Shown here: piece by piece, positions 3,933 to 61,672 of the stretch
Numbering within the stretch: position 1 is the first letter of the stretch
Layout of the letters: every line of letters begins with the position of its first letter
Source: Leucoraja erinacea
Taxonomy: Eukaryota
Length of the DNA stretch: 64,000 nt
Assembly (NCBI RefSeq): GCF_028641065.1
Contig: NC_073412.1
Span: forward strand, 12,338,001 to 12,402,000
Direction: 5' to 3'
Made by a program: the position numbers and the translations under genes
The notes under the pieces: generated by a model
What the model saw: only the letters and a program-made list of their open reading frames with translations
The model's database searches: none
What the model was told of the DNA's origin: nothing

Positions 3933-4096
3933 GTAAGCATCTTCCTAATTACTAATGTGTTGATTTAATTTAATTTTTGTTTTGTTATAACATAGTATTT
4001 GGACAGGAAATTCTTTATACTTAATACAATATCTTCAATAAGTTTGCCCAAAATGTTTTGCCTAACTAATGCTCCTGAGAGTTTTTTTCAAATCCT

Positions 4097-7000
4097 TTGC
4101 GGTCCCCTGCGGTCATCTCCCTCCTAAACAGGTATACCATTTTGGATACTGTTGGGGGAGATGGCTCATCAGGGGAAGGCAGCAGTAGCCAAGTTCATGG
4201 CACCATGGGTGGCTCTGCGGCACAGGAGGGGAGAAAAAAGAGTAGAAGGGCAATAGTAATATGGGATTCAATTGTAAGGAGAATAGATAGGCGTTTCTGC
4301 GGCCGCAAACAAGACTCCAGGATGGTATGTTGCCTCCCTGGTGCAAGGGTCAGGGATGTCACTGAACGGCTGCAGAACATTCTGGAGGGGGAGGGTGAAC
4401 AGCCAGTTGTCGTGGTGCATATTGGCACCAACGATATAGGTAAAAAAAGGGATGAGGTCCTACAAGGTGAATTTAGGGAGCTTGGAGATAAAAGTAGGAC
4501 CTCAAAGGTAATAATACCAGTGCTACGGGCTAGTCAGAGTAGAAATAGGAGGATATTGCAGATGAATACGTGGCTTGAAAAATGGTGCAAGGGGGAGGGA
4601 TTCAAATTTCTAGGGCATTGGAACCAGTTCTGGGGGAGGTGGGACCAGTACAAACAGGACGGTCTGCATCTGGGCTGGAATGGAACCAATGTCCTTGGGG
4701 GAGTGTTTGCTAGTGCTGTCGGGGAGGATTTAATGTGGCAGGGGGATGGGTGCAAGAGCAGAGAGGCAGAGGGGTGTAAAATGAGGGTAGAAGGAATAGG
4801 TAGCAAGGTGAAAAGTAAAAGTGGCAGGCAGACAAAACCAGGGCAAAAATCAAAAAAGGACCACTTTTCAACATAATTGTATAAGGGGTAAGAGTGTTGT
4901 AAAAACAAGCCTTAGGCTTTGTATCTTAATGCAAGGATCATTCGTAATAAGGTGGATGAGTTGAATATGCAGATAGTTATTAATGAATATAGTTGGGATC
5001 ACGGAGACATGGCTCCAGGGTGACCAAGGCTGGGAGCTGAACACCCAGGGATATTCAATATTCAGGAGGGATAGACAGAAAGGAAAAGGAGGTGGGGTAG
5101 CGTTGCTGGTTAGAGAGGAGATTAATGCAATAGAAAGGAAGGACATTAGCTTGGAGGACGTGGAATCGGTATGGGTAGAGCTGCAAAACACTTAAGGGGC
5201 AGAAAACGCTAGTGGGAGTTGTGTACAGGCCACCTAACAGTAGTAGTGGAGTTGGGGATGGCATCAAACAGGAAATTAGAAATGCGTGCAAAAAAGGTAA
5301 AACAATTATAATGGGTGACTTCAATCTACATATAGATTGGGTGAATCAAATTGGCAGGGGTGCTGAGGAAGAGGATTTCTTGTAATGTATGCGGGATAGT
5401 TTTCTAAACTAACATGTAGAGGAACCAACGAGAGAGCAGGCTATTCAAGATAGTCTGGCAAATTATTCTTAGAGGGTCGACGGTGGATATGCAATGGAAG
5501 GCATTTAAAAACTGCATGGATGAACTACAACAATTGTTCATCCCAGTTTGGCAAAAGAATAAATCGGGAAAGGTAGTGCATCCGTGGATAACAAGGGAAA
5601 TCAGGGATAGTATCAAAACAAAAGATGAAGCGTACAAATTAGCCAGAAAAAGCAGCCTACCAGAGGACTGGAAGAAATTCAGAGTCCAGCAGAGGCTTAA
5701 TTAGGAAAGGGAAAATAGATTATGAAAGAAAACTGGCAGGGAACATAAAAATTGACTGCAAAAGTTTTTATAGATATGTGAAGAGGAAAAGATTAGTTAA
5801 AACAAATGTAGGTCCCTTGCAGTCAGAAACAGGCGAATTGATCATGGGGAACAAGGACATGGCAGACAAATTGAATAACTACTTTGGTTCCGTCTTCACT
5901 AAGGAAGACATAAATAATCTGGCGGCAATAGCAAGGGACCGGGGGTTAAATGAGATGGAGGAACTGAGTGAAATCCAGGTTAGCTGGGAAGTGGTGTTAG
6001 GTAAATTGAATGGATTAAAGGCCGATAAATCCCCAGGGCCAGATAAGTTGCATCCCAGAGTACTTAAGGAAGTAGCCGCAGAAGTAGTGGATACACGTGA
6101 TAAATTTTCAAAACTCTTTAGATTCTGGAGTAGTTCCTGAGGACTGGAGGGTAGCTAATGTAACCCCACTTTTTAAAAAGGGAGGGAGAGAGAAAACGGA
6201 GAATTACAGACCAGTTAGTCTAACATTGGTGGTGGGGAAAATTCTGGAGTCAGTTATTAAAGATGGGATAGCAGCACATTTGGAAAGTGGTGAATTCATT
6301 GGACAAAGTCAGCATGGATTTATGAAAGGTAAATCATGTCTGACGAATCTTATAGAATAGTAATTAGTAAAGTGGATAATGGAGAACCAGTGGATGTGTT
6401 ATATTGGGACTTTCAGAAGGCTTTCGACAAGGCTTTCGACAAGGTCCCACATAAGAGATTAGAATACAAACTTAAGGCACACGGTATTGGGGGTTCAGTA
6501 TTGATGTGGATAGAGAACTGGCTGGCAGACAGGAAGCAAAGAATAGGAGTAAACGGATCCTTTTCAGAATGGCAGGCAGTGACTAGTGGGGTACCGCAAG
6601 GCTCAAGGCTGGGACCCCAGCTATTTACAATATATATTAATGATCTGGATGAGGGAATTGAATGCAACATCTCCAAGTTTGCGGATGACATGAAGCTGGG
6701 GGGCAGTGTTAGTTGTGAGGAGGATGCTAGGAGGCTGCAAGGTGACTTGGATAGGTTGGGTGAGTGGGCAAATGCACGGCAAATGCAGTATAATGTGGAT
6801 AAATGTGTTATCCAGTTTGGTGGCAAAAACAGGAAAGTAGACTATTATCTGAATGGTGGCCGATTAGGAAAAGGAGAGATGCAACGAGATCTGGGTGTCA
6901 TGGTACACCAGTCATTGAGTGTAAGAATGCAGGTGCAGCATGCAGTGAAGAAAGCAAATGGTATGTTAGCATTCATAGCAAAAGGATTTCAGTATAAGAG

Positions 7001-7595
7001 CAGGGAGGTTCTACTGCAGTTGTACAGGGTCTTTGTGAGACCTGGAGTATTACATACAGTTTTGGTCTCCTAATCTGAGGAAAGACATTCTTGCCATAGA
7101 GGGAGTGCAGAGAAGGTTCACCAGACTGATTCCTGGGATGGCAGGACTTTCATATGAAGAAAGACTGGGTAGACTCGGCTTGTACACACTAGAATTTAGA
7201 AGATTGAGGGGGGATCTTATAGAAACTTACAAAATTCTTAAGGGGTTGGACAGGCTAGATGCTGGAAGCTTATTCCCGATGTTGGGAAAGTCCAGAACTA
7301 GGGGTCACAATTTAAGGATAAGAGGGAAGTATTTTAGGACTGAGATGAGAAAATCATTTTTTATACAGAGAGTGGTGAATCTGTGGAATTCTCTGCCACA
7401 GAAGGTAATTGAGGCCAGTTCATTGGCTAGATTTAAGAGGGAGTTAGATGTGGCCCTTGTGGCTAAAGGGATCAGGGGGTATGGAGAGAAGGTAGGGATG
7501 GGATACTGAGTTGGATGATCAGCCATGATCATATCGAATGGCGATGCAGGCTCGAAGGGCCGAATGGCCTACTCCACCTATTTTCTATGTTTGTA
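4097..7595 (+). mobile_element. CR1-clade LINE (HER1-like), 5'-truncated and decayed: ORF1 esterase, ORF2 endonuclease + RT
   Basis: ORF1 IVIWDSIVR / VVHIGTND / DGLHL (SGNH esterase); ORF2 IVGITETW, MGDFN, KSPGPD, YRPVSL, GVPQGS, FADD; stops and frameshifts; 3' UTR ending ttctatgt. Confidence 0.93.
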
Positions 7596-9108: not shown

Positions 9109-9319
9109 GTTACACAAAAAAAAGCTGGAGAAACTCAGCGGGTGCAGCAGCATCTATGGAGCGAAGGAAATGGGCAACGTTTCGGGCCGAAACCCTTGGT
9201 TTCGGCCCGAAACGTTGCCTATTTCCTTCGCTCCATAGATGCTGCTGCACCTGCTGAGTTTCTCCAGCTTTTTTTTGTGTAACCTTCGATTCTCCAGCAT
9301 CTGCAGTTCCTTCTTAAAC
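9109..9319. mobile_element. PLE-derived fold-back insertion; 14-bp TSD
   Basis: TSD agagtttattgtca at 9095-9108 and 9320-9333; ~85-bp near-perfect inverted arms plus a ~36-nt unpaired tail. Confidence 0.88.
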
Positions 9320-37749: not shown

Positions 37750-37965
37750 CTTCGACTGGCATCGCTTCATCAAATCCTGGTGTTGCTTTCTGGAATGGAG
37801 GAAAAGGGCAGCCAGTTTGCAGGAAGCAGTTGCCTGGCATCATGGTTCCACTCTGCTTCTTTGCTCACTTCAGTCCGACTGCAATTTCTTGCAGGATGCT
37901 TTGGCCTGGGCACAGTCGGAAATATAGAAATCAACGGTGAAAGTGTTCAACTGCATCACTATCAG
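37750..37965 (+). CDS. HERC1: HERC1 exon (LRLASLHQILVLLSGMEEKG...LHHYQ)
   Basis: ttgtag acceptor, CAG|gtaaaa donor. Confidence 0.95.
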
Positions 37966-37968
37966 GTA

Positions 37969-38197
37969 AAAAAGGACACAAAGCACTGGAGTAACTCAGT
38001 GTTTCAGGCAGCATCCCTGGAGAATATGAATAGGTGACGTTTTGAGTCGGGAACCTTCTTCAGATTCAGTCTGAAGAAGGGTCCTGACCCGAAACGTCAC
38101 CTATCCATGTTCGCGTGAGATGCTGCCCGACCTAGCAAGTTACTTCAGCATTTTTTTTTAATGTAAACCAGCATCTATAGGTCCTTGTTTCTGCATT
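37969..38197. mobile_element. PLE-derived fold-back insertion with hammerhead-like core; 13-bp TSD
   Basis: TSD tcactatcaggta at 37956-37968 and 38198-38210; inverted arms; CTGAAGA...GAAACGTC at 38071-38098. Confidence 0.85.
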
Positions 38198-38339
38198 TCA
38201 CTATCAGGTACACGTTTATTATGAATAGCAAGTCTGCAAGAGAGGAAATAATCTTAAATTCCATGATAACATAAAAATAACATCAACACAGTTAATGAAG
38301 GTAAAAATTTAAGTGCAAATAGGCTCTTTGTTTCTTAAT

Positions 38340-39245
38340 ATAAATTCAAGCGTTTTGCCAAACACTTGCTCAGTCTGCCAAAGCCTATTTGGATCTCCCA
38401 TTTGCTAGCCATTTGAACTATTCTTCCCATTCCCACATCAACCTGTGTCCTTGGCTTCCTCCATTGCCAGAGGGAGACCACACACAGACTGGAGAATCGG
38501 CACCTCGTATTCTGCTTGGGTAGCTTACAACCCAAAAAATAAACATTTAAAATCTTCAATGTTTCCAATTTCTGTTAACTTATCAAAAATTAGAGAAGTT
38601 AATGTTGGGTTTAAGCTACCCAAGAGGAATATGAGGTGCTGTTCCTCCAGTTTGCGCATGGCCTCACTCTGGCAATGGAGGAGGCTTGAATCTTCTACCC
38701 CTAGACTGTCTCCCTTGCTCCATCCAGGGACTCCAGCAGTCTTTCCATGACAGCAGAAGGTTTATGAGCACTTCATCTAACCTCATTTACTACATCCAGT
38801 GTTCCCGATGTGGCCCCCTTACATCGGTGAGACCAAGCGTTGACTTGGAGGCTGTTTTGCCGAACATTTGAGCTTGGTCCGCCTAGACCTACAGAATCTC
38901 CTGGTTCCATCCATTTTAACTCTCCTTCCCATATCCATACTGACCTTTCTGTCCTAGGCCTCCCCCATTACCAGAATGAGGCCACATGCAAACTGGAGGA
39001 ATAGCACCTCACATTCCGCTGGGATAGCTTACTACCCAACATTGAATTCTCCAATGTTGAAGAAGGGTTTCGGCCCGAAACGTTGCCTATTTCCTTCGCT
39101 CCATAGATGCTGCTGCACCCGCTGAGTTTCTCCAGCTTTTTTGTGTAACCATTGAATTCTCCAATGTTGGGCAACCTGACAACCACCCAGCTACCCAGAG
39201 ATGCTGCCTGATCAGCTGAGTTACTCCAGCACTTTGTCTATTTTT
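38340..39245 (+). mobile_element. Rearranged Penelope-like GIY-YIG fragments
   Basis: SSNLIYYIQCSRCG, ETKR, pseudo-LTR pieces. Confidence 0.75.
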
Positions 39246-47473: not shown

Positions 47474-49390
47474 TGAAACTTATAAGATCATTAAGGGCTT
47501 GGACACGCTAGAGGCAGGAAACATGTTCCCGATGTTGGGGGAGTCACAGTTTACAAATAAGGAGTAAGCCATTTAGAACGGAGACGAGGAACTTTTTCTC
47601 ACAGTGGCGAGCCTATGGAATTCTCTGCCTCGGAGGGCGGTGGAGGCAGGTTCTCTGGATGCTTTCAAGAGAGAGCTAGATAAGGCTCTTAAAAATAGCG
47701 GAGTTAGGGGATATGGGGAGAAGGCAAGAATGGGGTACTGATTGGGGATGATCAGCTATGATCACATTGAATGGCGGTGCTAGCTCGAAGGGCCGAATGG
47801 CCCTCTCCTGCACGTATTGTCTATTGTCTATTCTTTTCATTCTACCTCTGCCAATTCATCCAAATTAGCAAAGTGTTGTGGTATATTGTTCAATAATTTC
47901 ATTGCTTCAAGGTCCAGGAACAGCTTCTTCCTAATGACCATCATGGTATTGAACACTAAACCACTTGGGTTGCACGAGGGACTTTGACAATCTCCTATCT
48001 ACCTGTTCAAGAAGGAACTGCAGATGCCGAAAAATCGAAGGTAGACAAAATGCTGGAGAAACTCAGCGGGTGCGGCAACATCTATGGAGCGAAGGAAATA
48101 GGTAACGTTTCGAGACGAAACGTTGCCTATTTCCTTCGCTCCATAGATGCTGCCGCACCGGCTGAGTTTCTTCAGCATTTTTGCCTACCTCCTATCTACC
48201 TGCACATAATCCATATCCCTCCATTCCCAGCATATCCATATGCCTATCCAAAAGTGTCTTAAATCTGCCTCAACCCACCAACCCTGTAAACTTTGCCCCT
48301 CGCACCTTAAAGCTCTGCCCTCTAGTATTAAATTCTTCCATTCGGGGGATAAAGGTTCTGACTGTCTATCCTCTCCGCCTCTCATAATGTTATATATTTC
48401 TATCGGGTCTCCCCGCAGTCTCTGGCATTCCGGAGAACCAATCCAAGACTGCCCAACTTTTCCCTGCAGCTAATGCCCTCTAATCCAGGCAGCATTCTGG
48501 TAACTCTCCTCTGTATCCTTTCCAAAGCCTCCATATCCTTCCTATAATGGGGCAACCAGAACTGCATTCAATACTCCAAATGTGGCCTAACCAGTCTTAT
48601 AAAGCTGCATCATGACTTCCAAACTCTTATACTCAATGGCCCGACCTATGAAACCAAGCATTTTATATACATCCTTACCACTTTATGTACTTGTGTTGCC
48701 ACTTTCAAGAAGTCATGGACTTGGACTCCAAGAGTCCAACTATGTACATCAATGCTGTTAAGGGCCATGCCATTAATTGTATATTTTCTCCATACATTTG
48801 ACCTCGTAAAGTGCTCACACTTGCTCAGTGGAGTTGCACTGCTTAAAATCAAACTTAATTTAACTATTATTTGAAAATGTATATGCTACGCGAAACTGGC
48901 CCTGTGGCAAGAGGAACCAGAAAATGGGCAATACTTGGGCGTTAAGGAAGGTATTTGATGAGACCACACACTCTTGTTTAGAAGGATGAGAGGTGGTTTA
49001 GAAGGAGAGGGAGTTTAGAAGGATGAGAGGGGATCTCATTGAAATATAAGATTGTTAAGGGTTTGGACACGCTAGAGGCAGGAAACATTTTCCCGATGTT
49101 GGGGGGAGTCCAGAACCAGGGGCCACAGTTTAAGAATAAGGAGTAAGCCATTTAGAATGGAGACGAGGAAACACTTTTTCTCACAGAGAGTGGTGAGTCT
49201 GTGGAATTCTCTGCCTCAGAGGGTGGTGGAGGTGGGTTCTCTGGATGCTTTCAAGCGAGAGCTAGATAGGGCTCTTAACAATAGCGGAATCAGGGGATAT
49301 GGGGAGAAGGCAGGAATGGGGTACTGATTGGGGATGATCAGCCATGATCACAGTGAATGGCGGTGCTGGCCTACTCCTGCATCTATTGTC
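47474..49390. mobile_element. Cluster of CR1 3' fragments (47474-47831 +, ~48200-48830 -, 48977-49390 +)
   Basis: CR1 3' coding and UTR similarity to the 7105-7590 copy. Confidence 0.8.
48006..48188. mobile_element. PLE-derived fold-back insertion; 14-bp TSD
   Basis: TSD ctcctatctacctg at 47992-48005 and 48189-48202; inverted arms. Confidence 0.87.
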
Positions 49391-50281: not shown

Positions 50282-50571
50282 GTAAGGTAGCTACTCTTGG
50301 GAATTATATCTTTAGAGTGGTGTTAGAAATGCTTCCGTATCATGTACTGAAAGGTTGGGATAGTCCTAGCCTCACCTATCTCCTCTGGCAGCTTGTTCCA
50401 TACACTCCGAAAACGTACAGGTTTGTAGGTTAATTGGCTTGGTAAATGTAAAATTGTCCCTAGTGTGTGTAGGATAGTGTTACTGTGCGGGGATCGCTGG
50501 TCGGAGCGGACCCGGTCAGCCAAAGGGTCTGTTTCCACACTGTATCACTAAACTAAACCCAGTTAAGGAAG

Positions 50572-52462
50572 ATGATTGACACAAAAAGCTGCAGTAACTC
50601 AGCAGGACAGGCAGCATCCCTGGAGGGAAGGAATGGGTGACGTTTCAAGTCGAGACCCTTCTTCAGAACGGTTAGGGATAAGGGAAACAAGAGATATAGA
50701 TGGTGATGTGGAGAGATAAAGAACAATGAATGAAAGATATGCAAAAATGTAATGATGATAAAGGAAACAGGCCATTGCAAGCTTTGTAGGGTGAAAATGA
50801 GAAGCTAGTGCCACTTGGGTGTGGGAGGGATAGAAAGAGAGGGAATGCCGGGGCTGCCTGCATTGAGAGAAATCAATATTCATACCACTGGGCTGTAAGC
50901 TGTCCAAGCGAAATATGAGATGCAGCTCCACCAATTTGTGTTTAGCCTCACTCTGACAACGGAGGAGTCCGAGGACAGAAAGGTCTGTGTAGGAATGGGA
51001 AGGAGAATGAAAGTGTCCAGAAATCGGGAGATCAGGTTGGTTCAGGCAGACTGAGCAAAAGGTGTTCTGCCAACCGATTGTCTAGTCTGCGTTTGGTCTC
51101 GCTGATGTAAAGGAGTCCACATCTGTAACAACGGATACAGTAGATGAGGTTGGAGGCCGTGCAAGTGAACCTCGGCCTAACCTGAAAGGACTGTCGGGGT
51201 CCCTGGACAGTCGAGGGAGGACGTATAGCGACAGGTGTTGCATCTTCTGCTATTGCAGGGGAAGGTACCTGTTGAGGGGGTGGTTTGGGTGGGAAGAGAT
51301 GAGAACCAGGTAGTGGCGGAGGGAACGGTCTCTGTGGAAGGCGGAATGGGGTGGAGATGGGAAAATGTGGCTAATCCATCCCGTTGGAGGTGGCGGAAAT
51401 TTTGGAGGATTATGTGTTGTATGTGATAGCTGATGGGGTAAGGACTAGGGGAACTCTGTCTCTATTACGACTAGTAGGAAGCGAGCAAGGGAAGAGCTGC
51501 GGGGTACCAAGGAGACACGAGTGAGGGCCTCATCGATGATGGGAGAGGGGATTCCCCGTTCCCTGAAGAATGAGCTCATCTCAGATGTTCTAGTATGGAA
51601 CACCTCATCTTGCGTGCAGATGCGGCGTAGACGGAGGAATTTGGAGTAGGGGGTAATCTTTGCAGGAAGCAGGGTGGGGAGAAGTGTAGTCGAGATAGTT
51701 GTGGGAGTCAGTGGGTTTGTATTAGACGTCATTCAATAGTCTATTTCCTGTGATGGAGACTGAGCAATCGGGAAAGGGGAGGGTGGTGTGGGAGATGGTC
51801 CAAGTAAATTTGAGTGCAGGATGAAAATTTGTGGTAAAGTTGAAGTCCTTGAGTTCTGCATGGGTGCAGGAGGTAGCAGTAATGGAGATAGAGTTTGGGG
51901 ATAGGGCCAGTGCAGCCTAGAACAGGGATTGTTCAATGTACCCTACAAAGAGGCAGGCATAGCTGGGGCCCGTGCGAGTGCCCATAGCTACGCCTTGGAC
52001 TTGGAGGAAGTGGGAGGAGTCAAAGGAGAAGTTGTTGAGGGGAGGACCAGCTCCGCTGTTAGTAGAGGGAAATTGGATGGTTCTGTGGTCGAGGAAGTAA
52101 CGGAGGGCTTTAAGGCCTTCCTGGTGTGGGATGGAGGTGTAGAGGTGTAGAGTGACTGAACATCAATAGCAAAGATGAGGGAGTGGGGGCTCGGAAAACA
52201 GGTCATTAAAAAGACGAAGGGCGTGCGAGGTATTATTGGACCAGGGGGGTTAGGATGGAGTCGAGGTATGTGGACATAATTTCCATGGGACAGGAGCAGG
52301 CAGAAACAATGGGTCTGCCAGGGCAGTTGTGTTTGTGGATTTTGGGGAGAAGGTAAAACCAGGCTGTGCGGGGCTGGGAGATAATACCGTTGGAGGTTGT
52401 GGAACGCAGACAGCCAGAAGTGATGAAATCAGTAATGGTGTTTGAAATTAAAGCCTGGAAGA
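50572..52462 (-). mobile_element. Penelope-like element, 5'-truncated and decayed: RT, GIY-YIG endonuclease, pseudo-LTR with hammerhead-like motif
   Basis: FYLLPKIHKHNCPGRPIVSACSCP, IDVQSLYTS, PYSKFLRLRRIC, C-terminal LIFRLDSLQPSGMNIDFS; 3' UTR contains CTGAAGAAGGGTCTCGACTTGAAACGTC (minus, ~50639-50666). Confidence 0.9.
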
Positions 52463-52513
52463 TGATTAGTGTGCAGAGTTTACTAAAGTTCTGGTAGTGC
52501 AATAGTGGTTTAC

Positions 52514-52837
52514 TGGGGAGTCCAGAACGAGGGGGTCACAGTTTAAGAATAAGAGGTAAGGCATTTAGGACTGATATGAGGAAAAACGTTTTCACTGAGA
52601 GTTGTGAATCTGTGGAATTCTCTGCCACGGAAGGCGGTGGAGACCAATTCACTGGATGTTTTCGAGAGAGTTAGATTTGGCTCCCGGGGCTTAGGGAATC
52701 AAGGGATATGGGGGGAAAAGCCAGAATGGCGTACTGATTTTGGATGATCAGCTGTGATCATATTGAATGGCGGTGCTGGCTCGATGGGCCGAATGGCCTA
52801 CTCCTGCACCTATTTTTTCTGTCTATGTTTCTATTGT
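52514..52837 (+). mobile_element. CR1 3' end
   Basis: Similar to 7290-7590; ttctatgt-type tail. Confidence 0.82.
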
Positions 52838-53889: not shown

Positions 53890-54057
53890 TGTGTATGAAG
53901 GAACTGCAGATGCAGGTTTAAACTGAAGATAGACGCAAAAATCTGAGTAACTCATCGGGCCAGACTGAAGAAGGGTCTCGACCCGAAACTTCACCCATTC
54001 CTTCTCTCCAGAGATGTTGCCTGTCCCACTGAGTTACTCCAGCTTTTTGTGTCTGTC
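53890..54057. mobile_element. PLE pseudo-LTR fold-back copy with hammerhead-like core on +
   Basis: CTGAAGAAGGGTCTCGACCCGAAACTTC at 53965-53992. Confidence 0.75.
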
Positions 54058-58842: not shown

Positions 58843-60449
58843 CTAGTTGAAATGCTGAGTGGAGAAAATGTGAAGAGTGCAAGTAAGCATTCCCTTGTGA
58901 TGGCCTTTTGTTAACGAGAGTCAATCGTGTGTTGTTGGGATTATACAGCATAGAAACAGGCCATTCGTCCCACTGTATAGACGTGGACACACATCTTTCC
59001 ACACTTGGCCAATTGCCTTCATGCCTGGGTGATCGAAATGCTTGTCTTGATGCTTAAATGCTATTAGCCACTCTGCTTCTTGGTGCTTAGCTGGTCAATA
59101 TGTTGCAGCCTCGTGTGTCTGCCTCCTGCTGGTCTTAGTGATTTGGCTGAACTTTCTGAGCAGCTGTATCATTCAGATATGCCTGATGCAAGAATACGTA
59201 TCGTGCCTTTATCACAGCTTTCAGCTCAACTCATGATTACGATCATTATCAAGAGGCTATTAAACACCTGCTGCAGTTCTATATAAAAACACACAAAATG
59301 CTAAGTAACACAGCAGGCTAATAATGTCTCTGGAGAACATGGATAGGCAATGTTTTTTGGACTCTTATTCAGACTGATTGTATGGGGAGGGACAAGCCTG
59401 GCAGGTGATAGGTGGACACAAAGTGCTGGAGTAACTCAGCGGGCCAGGCAGCATCTCTGGAGAACAACGAATGCTAACATTCTGGGAGCCCGAAACGCCA
59501 CTCATCCTTTTCTCCTGAGATGCTGCCTGATCTGTTGAGATACTCTGGCATTTAGTGTCTATCGTTGGTTCCTTTCTACACAAGTTCTGCAGATGCAGAT
59601 GAGGAGGCTTGATTGACAAATGTGTGCGCGAAGGCCAGCGATGAAAAGAAGATAACAGATTGTGAGATATGTAGAGGAGGCATGAAATGTGAAGCCAGAG
59701 GAAAGAATATAGGTGGAAGGGGATGGAAGGAAAGTGGGCGGCAGTGTGGAAGAAATAGATGCATTAAGGTGCGGCAAGGGTAGAGAGGGGAGTAAAGAGG
59801 GCGGAGAGGGTGGGAGTATTGGCCAGCGGGGTGTTATTGGTTACTTACTGACATTGGAAAATTTCATGTTCATACTGTTGTGTTATGAGCTAAAGGAAAA
59901 ATGTATGGAAGAAAGATTATAGTCCGGCAGGGTATTCTTCATTCGTTACATGATATACATGTTGGACTGATTTGGTGAAAGCGAGAGAATGCAGTGCTGC
60001 TGTAGATGGTTTCCCTACCCCTGTTAGACTAAGATCAAGGCTGAAGCTAAAGAGAACTGACAGTTTAATTTGTAAATACACAAGTCCTAGATTACTGCAG
60101 AATGAGAGGAGACAGTGGTTTGCGGAGAATGTAAGTAATTAAGCAAAGCGATATTTCCATTTAGTAGCCAGCATGCACTGGGGGACCACTGTCACTGAGC
60201 TCAGCTGCCAGTATTGAACAACTGAGTATATGAACAACCAGTTCATGGTGCCCTGGCATAGTGAAGGTTGTTTGAATGTGAGCCTAGACTATTATTGACC
60301 CGGAAACAGTGTCGTGGGGTGACGCCTGTATGGTCGTGAGTATTCTCCCAAAGAGTCGTACCTTTTTCTGGTCACCGCTGAAAATCTTCGGCGTCCTGCT
60401 GCAACTATGCAGTACTGGTAGACGCCAAAAAACTGGGACAGGCCCTTTA

Positions 60450-61672
60450 GTTTAATACCGTCTTTGACTTCCCTTGTCAGCCACGGTCGCCACATGGGAA
60501 ATCTTTCTTCCTCTGGGATGAAATGACCCCGCATCTTCCGAATTCCTGTCAGCGTCCCTTTCCAATGAACTTTAGCCACCCCCTCTCTCATGCCTCTAGT
60601 TACCTTTACTCAACAGTAATATCAACACATCTAATTCCATCTTCTCCCTCTCAGACTGCAGGTTGAATTTTATCATATTATGGTCACTACCTCCTAGGGA
60701 TTCCTTTACCTTGAGCTCCTAATCAAATCCAGTTTGTAGAGTAGACGAAAAGGCTGGAGAAACTCAGCGGGTGAGGCAGCATTTATGGAGCGAAGGAAAT
60801 GGGCGACGTTTCGGGTCGAGACCCTATTTCCTTCACTCCATAAATGCTGCCTCACCTGCTGAGTTTCTCCAGCATTTTTGTCTACCTTCAATTTTCCAGC
60901 ATCTGACGTTCCTTCTTAACCAAATCCAGAAGTGACTTTACGCAAGTAGGCTCGACTACAAGCTGCTCTAAGAAACCATCTCATGGCACGCTACAAATTC
61001 CTTCTCTTGGAATCTATGGTTTTCCCAGTTTACCTGCACATTGAAATCCCCCATGACCACTATAACATTGCCTGCCGTTTATGCTGATTTTATCTCCTGA
61101 TTTAATTTGTTCGCTACATCCTGGCTACAGTTCGGAGGCATGTATATAACTCCCAACAGGTCTTTTTAGCCCTTGCGGTTTCTTAGCTCTACCCATGAGG
61201 ATAATACATCTTCTGATCCTATGTCATCGCAAGGACTGAATTCATTTCTTACCAGGAGAGCTACCCCACCCCTTCTGCCCACCTGTCTGTCTTTCTGATG
61301 GAATGTAACCTATTTAAGGCATGTCTGATGCCCACATCATCATACCTACCAATTTCTAACTGGTCTATAAGCACATTCACTTTGTTCCATACACTGCGCG
61401 CATTCAATATAATAGTTCAGTATTCATCAGCCCTCTTCTCAAAACCCTTTTCACCCAGAGAGTTGTGATTTTGTGGAATTCCATGCCACAGAGGGCAGTG
61501 GAGGCAAAGTCACTGGATGGATTTAAAAGATAGTTAGATAGAGCTCCAGGGGCTAGTGGAATCAAGGGATATGGGGAGAAGGCAGGCATGGGTTATTGAT
61601 TGGGGACAATGAATGGCGGTGCTGGCTCGAGGGGCCGAATGGCCTCCTCCTGCACCTATTTTCTATGTTTCT
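60450..61672. mobile_element. CR1 endonuclease-region fragment (-) and CR1 3' end (+, 61447-61672)
   Basis: Reverse complement of atgggggatttcaa (MGDFN); CR1 3' UTR. Confidence 0.78.
60740..60920. mobile_element. PLE-derived fold-back insertion within a CR1 fragment
   Basis: Inverted arms gctggagaaactcagc / gctgagtttctccagc. Confidence 0.8.

Follow-up and report, generated by a model that had tools for sequence, protein, structure and literature searches.

A minimal hammerhead motif in a Penelope-like pseudo-LTR family of Leucoraja erinacea, and the likely origin of its short copies from uncut RNA

Next to a coding exon of HERC1 in the skate Leucoraja erinacea lies a short repeat with the letters of a hammerhead ribozyme. 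This locus raises the question of which ribozyme class the motif belongs to, which element brought it there, and whether the RNA from which the repeat was copied had been cut by it; the role of the ribozyme for Penelope elements is described as still an open question in the accessible text of PMC8557442. We analysed the window, that is, the whole stretch of 64,000 nucleotides of contig NC_073412.1 (positions 12,338,001 to 12,402,000, forward strand), together with copies from the rest of the genome. Positions are those of the window unless a locus is named.

The motif and its insertion beside HERC1

The initial annotation had read at 38067-38102, on the plus strand, the succession CUGANGA, stem II, GAAA, palindromic ACGU and GUC, and the letters are as it gave them (Table 1). 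The motif at 38071 holds all 11 of the 11 core positions (CUGANGA, GAAA, NUH), a helix II of at least 4 bp, the G10.1-C11.1 pair and the unpaired nucleotide 9/10.1, and is closed by a helix I of 2 bp only, to which the folding model assigns a probability of 0. Among 348 motif-spanning copies of the family (filtered at 21 of 28 letters and including 30 loci picked by their exact motif) the third position of helix I is an A-C mismatch in 243, and the 15.2-16.2 pair is C-G in 223, the remainder being mostly CpG decay.

Table 1. Coordinates of the features in the window.
Feature	Position	Strand	Remark
HERC1 coding exon, 72 codons	37750..37965	+	at its end homologues continue into the next exon (39981)
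Target-site duplication, left copy, 13 bp	37956..37968	+	last 10 nt of the HERC1 exon and GTA of the donor
Left arm: inverted pseudo-LTR-end copy without tail	37969..38064	-	carries a motif with C3 at 38063
Right arm: short pseudo-LTR-end copy	38066..38197	+	begins 5 nt ahead of C3
Helix I, 2 bp	38069-38070 with 38099-38100	+	
C3-A9 core CUGANGA	38071-38077	+	part of the minimal hammerhead motif 38071..38098
Inserted A after A9	38078	+	fits the published consensus
Stem II	38079-38090	+	closed by G38079-C38090, 4-5 bp
GAAA box	38091-38094	+	
C15.2-G16.2 pair	38095-38096	+	within the palindromic ACGU 38094-38097
U16.1 and C17	38097 and 38098	+	GUC = 38096-38098; predicted cut after 38098
Right-arm optional tail, ~40 nt	about 38160-38197	+	boundary judged by eye
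Target-site duplication, right copy	38198..38210	+	second candidate donor CAG/GTACAC, 242 nt downstream of the first
Decayed 5'-truncated Penelope-like coding copy	50571..52520	-	RT, Cys-rich linker, GIY-YIG endonuclease, 3' UTR, pseudo-LTR end
Motif copy in the coding copy's 3' UTR	50639..50666	-	11/11 core, helix I reduced to 1 bp
Third window copy with 11/11 core	53965..53992	+	palindrome broken at 16.2

Minimal hammerheads were defined as a class by Cervera and De la Peña in 2014, with the inserted nucleotide and the palindrome as marks (PMC4209133). In the accessible text of that work they have the same core, the same inserted nucleotide after A9, the same G10.1-C11.1 pair and palindromic 15.2-16.2 pair and, like the skate motif, no helix III; their placement in both pseudo-LTRs, their many single truncated copies and their opposite-strand pairs are likewise shared, and the Latimeria, Culex and Xenopus rows of Fig. 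S3 come near in layout. The proposal of a minimal hammerhead in a Penelope-like pseudo-LTR is borne out by this fit, and the two caveats that had been attached to it fall away: the extra A is itself part of the published consensus, and a helix I of 2 bp, at the short end of the published range, has counterparts in the Culex and D. virilis rows. Judged on these features of the sequence, the motif almost certainly belongs to the Penelope minimal hammerhead class. The class has been known since 2014; the new part is the host lineage, the 56-motif alignment and Table S1 of PMC4209133 holding no cartilaginous fish, and the very high copy number.

Canonical type I hammerheads such as Schistosoma Sm-alpha and the amniote HH9/HH10 share with this motif the catalytic core, the type I topology and the intronic position; in contrast to them it has neither a helix III stem-loop nor a 6-bp helix I with tertiary loop contacts, it has no Rfam match (hammerhead is absent among the 18 matches of the window at E up to 5), and, unlike HH9/HH10, it is not a conserved single-copy host ribozyme. 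A loose core pattern by itself is just modestly over chance within the window, with 3 matches versus 0.61 expected and at least 3 in 3 of 100 shuffles.

The assignment to HERC1 is confirmed, with its mapped exons on the plus strand of the window. The further statement that the repeat is spread through HERC1 introns stands for the copies up to 57.4 kb, which lie between mapped exons, and not for those beyond 58 kb, past the last mapped exon. The motif sits in the right arm of an insertion of 229 bp (37969-38197) that is arranged head to head and flanked by 13-bp direct repeats; the motif of the left arm is damaged by the loss of G12 and of one stem II pair. The 229-nt hairpin lies between two candidate HERC1 donors, CAG/GTAAAA and CAG/GTACAC (37956-38210), the second of which, if used, would bring in stop codons, and the locus is an example of a retroelement insertion doubling the splice donor of an essential-type gene. 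Folded in place, both arms are predicted to form one hairpin of -106 kcal/mol with a stem II probability of 0, and the isolated right arm gives a predicted probability of 0.57-0.67; the inverted partner arm is predicted by this model to sequester the 38071 motif, and a dimer mechanism is not supported for this copy. Of the five subfamilies, the copy falls in the oldest one; it differs by 12.8% from its column majorities, and is likely an inactive relic that was likely copied from uncut RNA.

Identity of the insertion with a MITE (DNA transposon) was rejected, since the two arms, derived from retroelement 3' ends, differ in length and the duplications vary, with 8-16 nt where found. Non-LTR retrozymes (PMC7229834; bioRxiv 10.64898/2026.07.22.740005) are, in the accessible parts of these sources, likewise hammerhead-bearing non-coding derivatives of Penelope pseudo-LTRs; they are head-to-tail tandem hammerhead units, whereas the copies here stand alone or in head-to-head pairs, and their 3' ends are those set by the parent element. 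This identity was also rejected, since the 38067 locus is head-to-head and 1 direct repeat was found among 109 copies starting at the motif edge. Tandem retrozymes, searched for with minimal models, are reported from one chondrichthyan genome in the accessible text of Li, Clavereau and Pollet (2026, bioRxiv 10.64898/2026.07.22.740005). A short tandem of motif-headed units with a common non-family flank occurs at two skate loci (L166:7311-7373 and L209:6934-6990) and is possibly a small retrozyme-like or satellite derivative.

The window holds more head-to-head pairs of the same repeat, at 9119-9274, 48034-48193, 59408-59568 and 60741-60891, three of which score in Rfam, under the gathering score, as microRNA precursor hairpins. 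We rejected the Rfam microRNA matches (MIR1507 and others, all under the gathering score) as head-to-head pairs folding as hairpins, and such pairs are a likely source of false microRNA annotation. At 38486-38653 and 39058-39245 Penelope ORF-end fragments form an inverted-repeat structure (Rfam MIR2606-like hairpin), and a young copy lies inside an older ORF end with a 12-bp duplication, which suggests an insertion into the element's own ORF-UTR junction. A decayed LINE with a GDSL-esterase ORF1 and RT fragments, which we take to be CR1-like, lies at 4079-7509.

Copies in the genome and their parent element

Copies were counted in an unselected sample of 944 kb, composed of the window, a total of 200 kb flanking it and 68 evenly placed 10-kb stretches. 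A descriptor search, which the initial annotation had proposed as a check, was run with a strict definition (core, stem II of at least 4 bp, 15.2-16.2 pair, NUH, helix I of at least 2 bp) and gave 31 matches in the sample, 30 of them from this Penelope-like family, with none in the reversed sequence and none in each of 5 shuffles. Extrapolation from the sample leads to ~70,000 descriptor-complete motifs genome-wide, a figure obtained with our own descriptor that is above the highest counts of PMC4209133, ~9,000 for Xenopus tropicalis with the descriptor and assemblies used there. One exact 28-mer variant of the motif was counted 15,042 times across the 2.19-Gb genome, against none in the reversed control, and a 46-mer of the young subfamily has 34,899 exact occurrences. 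The downstream part of the repeat gave 402 matches in the 944 kb, which extrapolates to roughly 0.9 million when each arm of a pair is counted.

Within the window there are 26 pseudo-LTR-end matches, 17 on the minus and 9 on the plus strand (too few for a test of bias), of which 15 retain at least 21 of the 28 letters of the motif and 3 have a complete core of 11 positions, the one at 38071 being the sole copy to pass the strict descriptor. The "more than ten short copies" counted earlier exist as decayed homologues (15 of 26 recognisable) and not as intact motifs, for which the counts are three with full core and one descriptor-complete.

The same motif had been reported at 50639-50666 on the minus strand, and it does sit in the 3' UTR of a decayed copy with RT and GIY-YIG, interrupted by numerous stops and frameshifts. 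With this coding copy as query the young subfamily was found. Translation of a young copy gives an RT followed by a C-terminal GIY-YIG with CCHH (motifs read by eye, with CxxC inside GIY-YIG), with Pfam E values of 1e-6 for RT and 3e-3 for GIY-YIG, both under the Pfam cut-offs, and with a CX4CxxC linker (CNRKRCNTC). Since a CX2-5CxxC linker marks Neptune/Nematis and is missing from Penelope/Poseidon in the accessible text of PMC8557442, the parent element appears Neptune-like. A search of the PDB found no relative at E 0.1.

In 10 of 12 fetched young near-full-length loci two same-strand motifs lie 3.7-4.1 kb apart, so that for the family the motif is found in both pseudo-LTRs of a Penelope-like ORF; it follows the stop codon of the element by ~120-190 nt, and in the tandem units of young loci an ATG stands 164 nt after C3. 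A sense motif lies 525-529 nt upstream in 13 of 30 young loci picked by their 5' ORF. None of the 12 young loci holds an unbroken single ORF, and one further candidate tandem (L121) was rejected, having proved to be a segmental duplication including its flanks. Partial tandems, inverted 5' copies, the optional tail and the target duplication are all present in the family; for the old subfamily of the 38071 copy the link to an ORF is plausible in 1 of 38 copies only. The ORF region of the young element (L222:1646-5310) measures ~3.7 kb and has a long Pro/His-rich N-terminal part, and all young copies read carry frameshifts in C-rich runs, which may be genuine or stem from errors of assembly.

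Where the insertions begin and end

The ends of the insertions were mapped with an anchor on the part after the predicted cut only. From the unselected sample 329 of the 402 matches were kept by score and flank, and an independent young set consisted of 96 of the first 100 young copies listed, on a single contig. The 3' ends of the 329 copies form two clusters, 163 at 56-68 nt and 101 at 91-105 nt past the predicted cut, with the two sites at about 60-68 and 95-104 nt, which match the priming sites and tail described for PAc, a Poseidon element of Anolis carolinensis (PMC11167929). At the 5' side 98 of the 329 begin at -5..0 of C3 and 1 begins at the predicted cut. Among the 96 young copies (of the first 100 listed) 43 start at -5..+2 of C3 and none within 2 nt of the predicted cut; 7 start at -6..-15, 1 between -16 and -174, and 27 beyond, into the ORF. 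In this set the end rate per nt at risk is 0.09 at the motif edge versus 0.0002 past -15, where there is 1 end in 4,391 copy-nt over ~160 nt.

The upstream flanks of the 109 copies that start at -6..+1 are unique in 64, an inverted partner in 40, shared in 4 and a direct repeat in 1. A repeat of at least 8 nt was found in 19 of these copies (2.7 in permutations), and in 14 the target duplication directly abuts the motif edge (0.3 in permutations). Because the starts pile up at the 5' edge of the motif and none of the 96 lies at the cut, it is likely that the short copies derive from RNA still holding the whole motif.

Several other sources of the pile-up were considered and rejected. Differences between subfamily UTRs do not account for it, as just 4 of the 109 upstream flanks are alike, inverted arms aside. 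Another cutting register (a GUC including C3, or an upstream AUC) has no fitting pairing, and 0 of the 96 young copies start at +1. For a 3' splice site CAG/U before the core (pyrimidine tract, D. virilis intron), the pattern joining ORF end to motif gave 1 match genome-wide, no exon is captured between the edge and the duplications adjoining it, and the 15 RNA joints listed of 185 include none of this kind; splicing is compatible with these negatives because these elements retain introns.

We propose that RNA starts at the first bases of the hammerhead and that priming 100-140 nt downstream would yield an integrated strong-stop-like cDNA, a proposal to which we give even odds. A transcription start is favoured by the initiator-like context and by the sharp drop of ends upstream, and disfavoured by the spread of the ends, by -2 being their commonest position and by the missing cap-G at -4. 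Subfamilies whose UTRs differ share the letters directly ahead of C3, and these letters fit the initiator consensus YYANWYY. Genome-wide, 3,869 exact matches lose identity at -2 and 2,393 at -3; copies starting at -3 are preceded by G in 32 of 100 (p=0.18), so that there is no significant cap-like excess at -4. Before copies starting at -2, G stands in 44 of 100 versus 30 expected (p=0.002, letters counted by hand), which could be a non-templated or cap-derived base.

The strongest competitor of a transcription start, although we consider it unlikely, is a stop or template switch of the reverse transcriptase, with RNA structure, a bound protein or exonuclease trimming as the cause of the pile-up. 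It would accommodate the gradual climb of the end rate from 0.017 per nt at +12 to 0.09 per nt at the motif edge, the scatter of ends across ~8 nt, the 40 of 109 copies that run on into an inverted arm, and the missing clear cap-G. However, the helices would already be unwound once the enzyme reaches C3, past -15 there is but a single end over ~160 nt, and the kept letters before C3 with their fit to the initiator consensus argue against it.

Cutting, constraint and a scheme for the family

In the accessible text of PMC11167929 (Frangieh et al. 2024) the PAc hammerhead needs the protein of the element in order to cut, and insertion in vitro can do without the hammerhead; uncut RNA is the insertion substrate, and no RNA-seq ends lie at the cut. 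As is proposed for the skate family, the hammerhead lies upstream of two internal reverse-transcription start sites, which set an optional tail of 30-40 nt. The two elements differ in that the PAc ORF starts at stem II, whereas here the ATG lies past the tail, and in the Neptune-type linker of the skate element, PAc being a Poseidon. For minimal hammerheads a monomer was without activity and dimers were of low activity (accessible text of PMC4209133). The ribozyme of the skate family probably cuts RNA, be it weakly, with the aid of protein or as a dimer. On the clustering of short-copy 5' ends at the ribozyme edge the accessible text of PMC11167929 holds no statement that we could find, and a literature search run without Repbase, Dfam and subscription journals gave no paper on it or on this family.

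A ribozyme active in vivo that cuts the tandem RNA at both pseudo-LTRs, and so supplies the transposition template, circularised or not (the 2014 model), is improbable on the distribution of the ends. Two identical motifs do flank each young unit, the core is unchanged in the five subfamilies, and no 5' end at the cut is expected from a circle; yet 1 of the 329 copies and none of the 96 young ones (taken from the first 100 listed) begins at the cut, and a circle fails to account for the ends at -5..+2. Genome-wide a purine occurs at position 17 in 822 cases versus 555 at 16.1, a small excess which could speak for cutting, but the 10 of the 822 that were checked comprise only 1 clean start at the cut, besides 4 fold-back joins at a local palindrome, 2 deletions and 3 substitutions. 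Three RNA runs (by species label, possibly of a related species) are uninformative on starts or cuts because they are dominated by reads of the pseudo-LTR end, with a depth in run X24 of more than 1,200 there versus mostly less than 20 in the 5' ORF; of the 6 begin or end places listed for them none is at the cut, which as weak data also speaks against cutting.

The 348 copies comprise five subfamilies of 194, 62, 38, 23 and 13 copies, with 18 unclustered. Greater conservation of the core than of its flank, and covariation in stem II, had both been put forward as checks. Between the subfamilies the majority letter changes in 0 of 11 core columns versus 13 of 57 downstream (Fisher p=0.078), which is suggestive of constraint on the core but not significant, and in single copies after insertion the core decays like the flank, including CpG loss at G12. 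The changes between subfamilies in helix I and stem II (U-A to U-G, seen in helix I of the young subfamily, and C-G to U-G) keep the pairing and are one-sided wobbles; no two-sided compensatory pair was found among the five subfamilies. In the context of the young family stem II has a predicted probability of 0.01-0.09 and helix I of 0, and two motifs folded together are predicted to form a plain duplex of stem II arms, a result which fits a ribozyme in need of help, or one not folding. In the young subfamily (L222:1482-1530) the folding model has the purine run of the core pair with a pyrimidine run located 35-40 nt farther downstream, a pairing that by this prediction would switch the ribozyme fold off; the pyrimidine run is not conserved in the subfamily of the 38071 copy.

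The short helix I, the preference of the folding models for other pairings, the lack of significant core constraint and a downstream leader conserved nearly like the core could also be read as a motif of hammerhead descent that no longer cuts and is kept as a promoter part or protein-binding leader. We regard this as less probable still than cutting in vivo, given that the 11 catalytic positions and all helix pairs survive while loop and downstream positions change, and that the comparable motif of PAc cuts once its protein is added (accessible text of PMC11167929). Co-option of the 38067 copy by HERC1, e.g. for pre-mRNA cutting or donor choice, is extremely improbable. In its favour, the copy is sense to HERC1, lies ~100 nt from a splice donor and is the sole descriptor-complete one of 26 despite its old subfamily; against it, the copy has a predicted stem II probability of 0 inside its hairpin and CpG-type decay in its loop, and is matched by 30 such complete copies per 944 kb.

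We propose a scheme, with a probability of roughly 0.6 as a whole, in which the hammerhead of a Neptune-like pseudo-LTR, internal priming, and uncut RNA starting at the motif edge would together produce the short copies. The RNA would begin near the A within the conserved CAGU, which resembles an initiator. By analogy with PAc, the element protein would nick DNA and prime reverse transcription inside the RNA at the two 3' sites, and copying would then proceed back through the intact hammerhead. On RNA with the edge start it would run off after ~100-140 nt, leading to the mass of short copies, and on read-through tandem RNA it would go on into the ORF. Head-to-head pairs like the one at 37969-38197 would arise from priming of both strands. 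Cutting, if any, would serve another step, such as the trimming of tandem transcripts or translation control, and not the making of short copies.

The genome holds a young family (96-99% identical copies, ~35,000 exact 46-mers) in which the ends of the insertions can be taken to document the RNA templates, and these ends point to uncut RNA with its 5' end at the edge of the ribozyme. If the scheme is true, hundreds of thousands of ribozyme-headed mini-copies would have arisen without a separate SINE master, and their ends would be genome-scale evidence of a Penelope hammerhead left uncut on the RNA used for insertion.
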